This document shows positions 36,958 through 37,494 of a DNA stretch of 64,000 bases, one piece after another; position 1 is the stretch's first letter, and each line of letters opens with the position of its first letter. The stretch is taken from positions 162,885 through 226,884 of the forward strand of contig CBDBBL010000018.1 of NCBI GenBank assembly GCA_965203125.1. The letters run 5' to 3'. The notes under the pieces were generated by a model that was not told the origin of the DNA, made no database searches, and worked only from the letters and a program-made list of their open reading frames with translations. This DNA is from Gammaproteobacteria bacterium. Lineage in GTDB: Bacteria > Pseudomonadota > Gammaproteobacteria > CBDBBL01. A program made the position numbers and the translations under genes.

Positions 36958-37331
36958 GGGGGCGACTTTTGGCTTCGACGTAGGCTTATAACCCTTCAGG
37001 TGCATGTCGCGCAATGAAGTAAACCGCGTAAAACTTGATTTCAGTAAATATAATTGCAAACGAAAGTGATTATGGAGTGATGGCGCAAGCCGCGTAACTT
37101 AAACCGTTACAGCTCTCTGTTGCCTTGATTTGTTTATGGTTTAAGTGCAACAGTTATATTTCATAAACTCGCATACGGTGTTGCCAAGCATGGTGTGTTA
37201 AATTTCTGGCTCGCTGAATGTATCCCTGACAGTTGGGTGATGTTTGGTTAAATTAATAAACTGAAACTAAGCATGTAGATCCTAAGGCGGAGAGTGTACG
37301 GACGCGGGTTCGATTCCCGCCGCCTCCACCA
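36958..37331 (+). ncRNA. ssrA: tmRNA (SsrA)
   Basis: 5' GGGGGCGAC...GGCTTCGACG and 3' GGACGCGGGTTCGATTCCCGCCGCCTCCACCA form a tRNA-Ala-like acceptor/T-arm with a G3:U wobble. Internal tag reading frame GCA AAC GAA AGT GAT TAT GGA GTG ATG GCG CAA GCC GCG TAA (ANESDYGVMAQAA, inferred) at 37056-37097. Confidence 0.8.
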
Positions 37332-37473
37332 TTTTTGTTTTTGAATTCTGAAGTAAAGAATTGTGAAGTAGCTTCGACTCCGCGTCCCGCGGGTTCGATT
37401 GATTCGGCACATCCATGTGCCTCACCCTACGGGCGAGCAAAGCTCGTCTATATTGACATCAGTGTCAATTTAT

Positions 37474-37494
37474 CCCGCCGCCTCCACCATTTTT
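37474..37494 (+). repeat. Direct repeat of the tmRNA 3' end (att-like)
   Basis: CCCGCCGCCTCCACCATTTTT at 37474-37494 is identical to 37316-37336 (the ssrA 3' end), 158 bp downstream. Confidence 0.6.

Follow-up and report, generated by a model that had tools for sequence, protein, structure and literature searches.

The ssrA (tmRNA) gene was located by ARAGORN at positions 36958-37331 of the + strand of the window, by which we mean the whole 64-kb stretch of DNA that was analysed, and is matched over its full length by the Rfam family RF00023 with a score of 173.4 bits. The tag peptide given by ARAGORN is ANESDYGVMAQAA, which terminates in QAA; a tag ending in LAA is the common form. A promoter-like site (36887-36915, + strand), consisting of ATGACA, a 17-nt spacer and TATAAT, precedes the mature 5' end of ssrA by about 43 nt and matches at 11 of 12 positions in what is a consensus scan only. 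The upstream flank carries, on the opposite strand, aroK and pilus genes, including a secretin and small open reading frames (ORFs) that belong to no family. The genes on the 3' side are core genes: rplM, which encodes L13 (37624-38058, + strand; Pfam PF00572) and is the first core gene after the repeats described below, and then rpsI (PF00380), sspA (GST domains) and sspB (PF04386), in that order. We note that sspB, the product of which is the adaptor for ssrA-tagged proteins, lies 1.86 kb downstream of ssrA in the same orientation, with rplM, rpsI and sspA in between (36958-39640).

The closest relative of L13, which is 94% identical, is found in L081, a 968-bp scaffold of metagenome RUSA22-1 (ERZ23495531). 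No other relative is more than 70% identical; identity to L13 from any named organism is 70% or less, with Abyssibacter as the best match, and a scan of genome contigs with L13 returned relatives of at most 65% identity, none of which is syntenic. Exact-match look-ups of L13, S9 and the protein P0001 gave no record. The L081 scaffold starts 56 nt before rplM and does not reach the repeats; the flank from 37564 onward is conserved in it. Apart from the ORF itself, no homolog of the 271-aa ORF that adjoins ssrA upstream was found among 5.8 billion clustered proteins.

The preliminary description of this DNA reported that the last 21 nt of the ssrA region recur a short distance downstream. This was confirmed: the 21-mer CCCGCCGCCTCCACCATTTTT is found, with no differences, at 37316-37336 and 37474-37494. 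No further copy is present in the 64-kb window when up to three mismatches are allowed, and none was obtained in 100 shuffles. The repeat had been understated by one base, as the exact repeat is the 22-mer TCCCGCCGCCTCCACCATTTTT (37315-37336 and 37473-37494), the copies of which are 100% identical and 158 nt apart from start to start. We refer to these copies as B1 and B2. B1 (37315-37336, + strand) comprises the last base of the T-loop, the 3' strand of the T-stem, the acceptor strand, ACCA and five T residues past the gene; B2 (37473-37494, + strand) is its exact displaced copy, and both copies thus include the trailing TTTTT.

The sequence between the repeats contains a second copied segment. 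The preliminary description noted a degenerate T-arm-like segment here; such a segment is present, but it is not degenerate. The 13-mer CGCGGGTTCGATT at 37388-37400 (A2, + strand) is an exact copy of 37303-37315 of ssrA (A1, + strand), which, according to the Rfam structure line, consists of the junction C, the 5' strand of the T-stem (GCGGG) and the T-loop (TTCGATT). In ssrA the source of the 13-mer directly precedes the source of the 22-mer, with one T common to both. Taken alone the 13-mer has a BLAST E value of 0.83 across the 64 kb; we estimate the chance of its being collinear, within the 136-bp interval and adjacent at its source to the 22-mer as about 1e-6. As both segments are exact and adjacent at their source, the downstream copy is one block of 34 nt, running from the T-arm to the end of the gene, that has been split by 72 nt (the insert; 37401-37472, + strand) at the boundary between the T-loop and the 3' strand of the T-stem. 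This differs from the simple 21-mer duplication that had been proposed. The copied bases are identical at 34 of 34 positions. The displaced block spans the T-arm to CCA plus TTTTT and ends sharply on both sides, at the start of the T-arm and 5 nt beyond CCA; with reference to the Rfam structure line, its A2 part starts at the 5' T-stem and its B2 part at the last base of the T-loop. It is an ssrA 3'-terminal fragment in direct orientation on the + strand, located 3' of the intact gene.

The remainder of the 136-bp interior consists of the insert and of a 51-nt spacer (37337-37387, + strand) that is related neither to ssrA nor to the rplM flank. Sequences that follow B1 and B2 gave no alignment better than shuffles when compared with each other, and the same was true of the spacer, the insert, the flank after B2 and the body of the tmRNA in all mutual comparisons. 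TRF found no tandem unit at the locus. The insert is predicted to form three hairpins (37406-37421, 37431-37449 and 37452-37469), the last of which includes the 16-bp palindrome TTGACATCAGTGTCAA (37453-37468) that had been recorded previously and is indeed present. The minimum free energy (MFE) of the insert is -25.6 kcal/mol (z = -5.05), and none of 200 shuffles folds as well. Its GC content is 0.49, compared with 0.33 in the flank after it. By inspection within the 64 kb, the insert is without terminal inverted repeats and the ambiguity of its junctions is 1 nt (T). A further hairpin is formed in the MFE structure by the last 14 nt of the spacer (37374-37387), which pair with A2 as TCGAcTCCGCG-TCC-CGCGGGtTCGA; the energy of this hairpin (37374-37398) is ordinary for its composition (z = -0.44).

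Attempts to assign the interior to a known class of sequence gave negative results. It contains no credible ORF and no recognisable remnant of a mobile element. No Rfam 15 family reaches its gathering score in the interior, and at the locus ssrA alone does so; a FourU match reaches 13.5 bits, where 60 are required. The tmRNA_permuted family gave a match at 37300-37378 that is below its gathering score (33.7 versus 47 bits). We attribute this match to the real 3' end of ssrA together with the 8-mer GCUUCGAC at 37372-37379, and judge it to be due to chance. A mini tRNA-like domain or a remnant of a permuted tmRNA was considered and rejected, as the 8-mer match GCTTCGAC is expected by chance and there is no 5' acceptor strand. 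A degenerate B copy directly after A2 was likewise rejected because the alignment does not rise above shuffles, as was a promoter in the TTGACA palindrome, for which no -10 element lies at usable spacing. The 51-nt and 72-nt pieces have no match in 141 fetched loci or in pattern scans of IMG/VR, and BLAST searches with the interior against phage and plasmid collections returned nothing. The interior has no second copy within the 64-kb window, in which the insert is also single-copy.

The segment from the T-arm to the 3' end of ssrA is one that integrases use as an identity block. The limitation of identity to a block of this type, its direct orientation and the unrelated flanks fit an attachment (att) scar, and additional support comes from integrase-linked ssrA fragments in IMG/VR. 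The 29-nt sequence CGCGGGTTCGATTCCCGCCGCCTCCACCA is carried by 60 IMG/VR contigs, about half of which contain a full tmRNA gene, while some nine of the 60 are bare fragments without a tmRNA body. In the bare fragments identity begins exactly at CGCGGG, the adjacent bases on the 5' side bearing no relation to tmRNA, and this 5' boundary is shared with A2. A gene with Arm-DNA-bind_2 and Phage_integrase domains was found 24-755 nt from the bare fragment in all seven of the contigs tested, an adjacency which supports the att-scar reading. The contigs with a bare CGCGGGTTCGATTCCCGCCGCCTCCACCA (L082, L102, L108/L138, L124, L126 and L136) resemble the window in that all 29 nt are identical and the 5' boundary is that of A2 plus B2. 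They differ in that the block is contiguous, with an integrase gene at the distance given above, and their arm sequences are unrelated to the 51-nt and 72-nt pieces of the window. A search of IMG/VR for the split-block pattern, A-N(55-85)-B, gave no matches. The same pattern gave eight matches in metagenomes, which were set aside since in all of them A and B are contiguous and one more B comes after them, an arrangement unlike that of the window.

Two of the viral contigs deserve a separate remark. In L126 (1240-3884) the bare ssrA fragment (2479-2507) lies between two different tyrosine integrase genes, of which the one upstream is of the Arm-DNA-bind_2 type and the one downstream is of the P4 type (Arm-DNA-bind_3 plus Phage_int_M). 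Such an arrangement points to elements with integrases of two different classes, inserted in tandem at a single ssrA. Viral contig L152 contains a bare 21-mer that includes the TTTTT, preceded by the T-loop-like sequence GGTTCAACT and abutted by a weak integrase-like ORF.

Comparison with island systems at tRNA and tmRNA genes indicates which features of the window are familiar. In the islands catalogued by Islander (Hudson, Lau & Williams, PMC4383910), the tDNA is restored on integration and a fragment of it is pushed away to the distal end of the island, where it serves as a marker; crossover takes place at subsites in the anticodon loop, in the T loop or at the T/acceptor junction. The window shares with these islands an intact target and a displaced 3'-terminal fragment in direct orientation, and the fragment boundary at the T-arm corresponds to the T-loop or junction (J) crossover subsites. 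Islander rejects candidates of less than 2 kb, whereas the copies in the window are separated by only 136 bp with no integrase between them; moreover, the split of the displaced fragment turns A2 into an internal fragment, and Islander discards fragments of this class. In Dehalococcoides, the 3' end of ssrA has been described in arrays of directly repeated 20-bp copies, with insertion in the T-loop and with some islands lacking integration genes (McMurdie et al., PMC3146451). These islands are similar to the window in having direct repeats of about 20 bp derived from the 3' end of ssrA, several of them downstream of one ssrA, and in that some intervals are without integration genes. They are unlike it in that they are of kilobase scale, involve a serine recombinase (DsiB) module and were confirmed by strain comparison.

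In our view, the repeats are probably the split remnant of a mobile element that was once integrated at ssrA. We take the anatomy of the block, its non-random arrangement, the unrelated flanks and the match of its boundary to that of integrase-linked fragments elsewhere as observed, and from these we infer that an element integrated and was deleted, and in what sequence this took place. The simplest history involves one integration with a 34-nt block, then the loss of nearly all of the element and, as a third step, the interruption of the displaced block by 72 nt. An element with a tyrosine integrase would have crossed over in the T-arm of ssrA, giving the gene a new end from the T-arm to CCA on the attL side and shifting the original end downstream to the attR side. 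B1 would thus be the attL-like copy and B2 the attR-like copy, the latter presumably representing the 3' end that ssrA originally had in the chromosome. The displaced block would at first have been contiguous, with CGCGGGTTCGATT running into CCCGCCGCCTCCACCATTTTT. An ordinary deletion would then have removed nearly the whole element and left 51 nt, after which 72 nt of hairpin-rich DNA would have interrupted the displaced block exactly at the boundary between the T-loop and the 3' T-stem. The 72 nt could have arrived as a small insertion, or could be all that is left of a second element integrated in tandem. The hairpins of the scar may incidentally help to stop read-through from ssrA into rplM. 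A history with two tandem elements, in which a B-only element lay distal to an A-plus-B element and deletions followed, is possible; we rank it lower because a deletion endpoint would have to coincide exactly with the start of the 22-mer block. The preliminary description had also read the repeats as the footprint of an element since almost entirely deleted. This reading is supported in part, by the block limits, the orientation, the unrelated flanks and the IMG/VR fragments, and the deletion of an island is the portion of it that we advance only as a deduction. An att scar at ssrA is of a well-known kind, and the splitting of the displaced block by a structured 72-nt insert is its sole unusual detail.

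There are observations that weigh against the integration scar. The identity of all 34 copied bases implies a recent event, and this is at odds with the reduction of an entire island to 136 bp without damage to either repeat; the split of the displaced block requires an additional event. The preliminary description had proposed to look elsewhere for a tyrosine integrase gene with an attP core matching the 21-mer. None was found in the window: no integrase gene (PF00589) is present between the repeats or in any ORF of at least 120 aa in the 64 kb. The lack of an ORF or element remnant in the interior, and of a like split block in the IMG/VR and metagenome searches, also counts against the scar.

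An integrase-free origin was considered, in which a local copy of the 3' end of ssrA was made by replication slippage, template switching or unequal crossing-over and then diverged and gained insertions. Precedent is provided by eight metagenome contigs in which an intact ssrA end is followed by more copies of CCCGCCGCCTCCACCA 27-57 nt on, and by the tandem arrays with an 80-nt unit and 6-8 copies in L145 and L146. In addition, 37374-37400 amounts to an inverted-plus-direct copy of the 5' half of the T-arm, such as a fold-back event could yield. The arrays of L142-L149 resemble the window in that an intact ssrA is followed, over the next 100 nt or so, by copies of CCCGCCGCCTCCACCA. However, in most of these contigs the whole unit, including a downstream hairpin, is repeated, up to eight times with an 80-nt period and 93% identity, and the flank after each copy is duplicated in most of them (L148/L149 excepted), whereas the flanks in the window cannot be aligned and there is neither flank homology nor a tandem unit detectable by TRF. 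The perfect identity of the copied bases next to unrelated intervening sequence is also a poor fit to duplication followed by divergence, and the block boundaries match those of integrase identity blocks. We therefore regard local duplication as unlikely. As an observation in its own right, a unit made up of a tmRNA 3' fragment and a terminator-like hairpin has been tandemly amplified 3' of ssrA in unrelated metagenomic bacteria: L145 (1-595) has 7.5 copies with an 80-nt period and 93% identity, L146 has six copies, and L143/L147 and L142/L144 have two or three copies with periods of 67-85 nt.

It is somewhat harder to credit that the locus is in essence a functional element, in which the hairpins and the second copy of the 3' end terminate or process the highly expressed ssrA transcript or insulate the rplM operon from it. 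The insert is far more structured than its shuffles (z = -5.05), and both B copies are followed by TTTTT. No terminator-like site was predicted in 36800-37700, and as no canonical intrinsic terminator is predicted in the interval from ssrA to rplM, read-through must be stopped by other means. Nevertheless, none of the hairpins has a U-run after it, no GC-rich stem-loop directly followed by a U-run occurs at the scar, B2 is unpaired in the predicted folds and no Rfam family is matched. A terminator role would also leave the exact copying of the T-arm and acceptor strand unexplained. Such a terminator or insulator role is compatible with an origin as a scar. The perfect 22-bp repeats could be taken to bound a miniature non-autonomous element that is still competent, in which case the att-flanked 136 bp would be excised and integrated by an ssrA-specific integrase acting in trans from another locus. 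Integrase-less, att-flanked ssrA units in Dehalococcoides have been discussed as cis-mobilizable elements (PMC3146451). Since the window is without an integrase, the longer block needed by class-matched integrases is split, and no second copy or related sequence was found in any collection searched, we consider a miniature element improbable. Slightly less probable is the idea that the 72-nt segment with its three hairpins is itself mobile, as a very small structured insertion, or forms the cargo of an integrase-less mini-element of 136 bp; it would be situated at, or make use of, the integrase cleavage boundary of the T-loop, and the att-flanked unit would still be mobilizable in trans and have been co-opted as a trailer or terminator of ssrA. 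Finally, as the sequence appears to be a single metagenome contig from an otherwise unsampled lineage, the arrangement could in principle have arisen by assembly, from a collapsed or chimeric path through island-bearing and island-free strains. Mis-joins usually stem from k-mers longer than the shared segments here (13 and 22 nt), and nothing within the interior is repeated in a way that would permit a collapse; such an artefact is very improbable.

The window contains other traces of mobile elements. A group II intron (12908-14524) is represented by an ORF for a reverse transcriptase/maturase (PF00078 plus PF08388) and by an Rfam Intron_gpII match at 14438-14524, and is directly adjoined by a fragment of an IS240-type DDE transposase (14551-14976). 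IS activity and gene decay have left traces at 5576-6604, 32607-33398 and 27651-28892; an ORF with an rve_3 integrase core is present, and an IS256/Mutator transposase covers only positions 140-377 of its profile. A second, partial copy of VipB/TssC lies on the opposite strand beside an intact type VI secretion (T6SS) cluster (tssF, tssG, tssA, vipA and vipB). The IS fragments, the group II intron and the truncated second tssC make mobile-element traffic and gene decay evident in this genome, and we have counted these traces in favour of the integration scar. A different kind of feature is seen at 52857-59127, where two very large ORFs (622 and 1492 aa) give faint matches to Ig-like/Big_3 repeats. 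The GC content of this block is 0.50-0.53, with an AT skew of about +0.3, compared with a GC content of about 0.41 elsewhere, and the two ORFs are preceded by an inverse-autotransporter-like ORF (49046-50854).

If it is true that the 72-nt hairpin insert is recurrent and site-specific, it would constitute a new mobile or regulatory element of small size; no evidence of this was obtained in the present analysis. The locus also indicates that splitting can affect a displaced tDNA fragment, in which case island finders based on such fragments would miss the longer identity block. For the organism, which belongs to a gammaproteobacterial lineage not sampled elsewhere, the scar would identify ssrA as a site at which integration once took place, and the value of the scar is mainly one of annotation.
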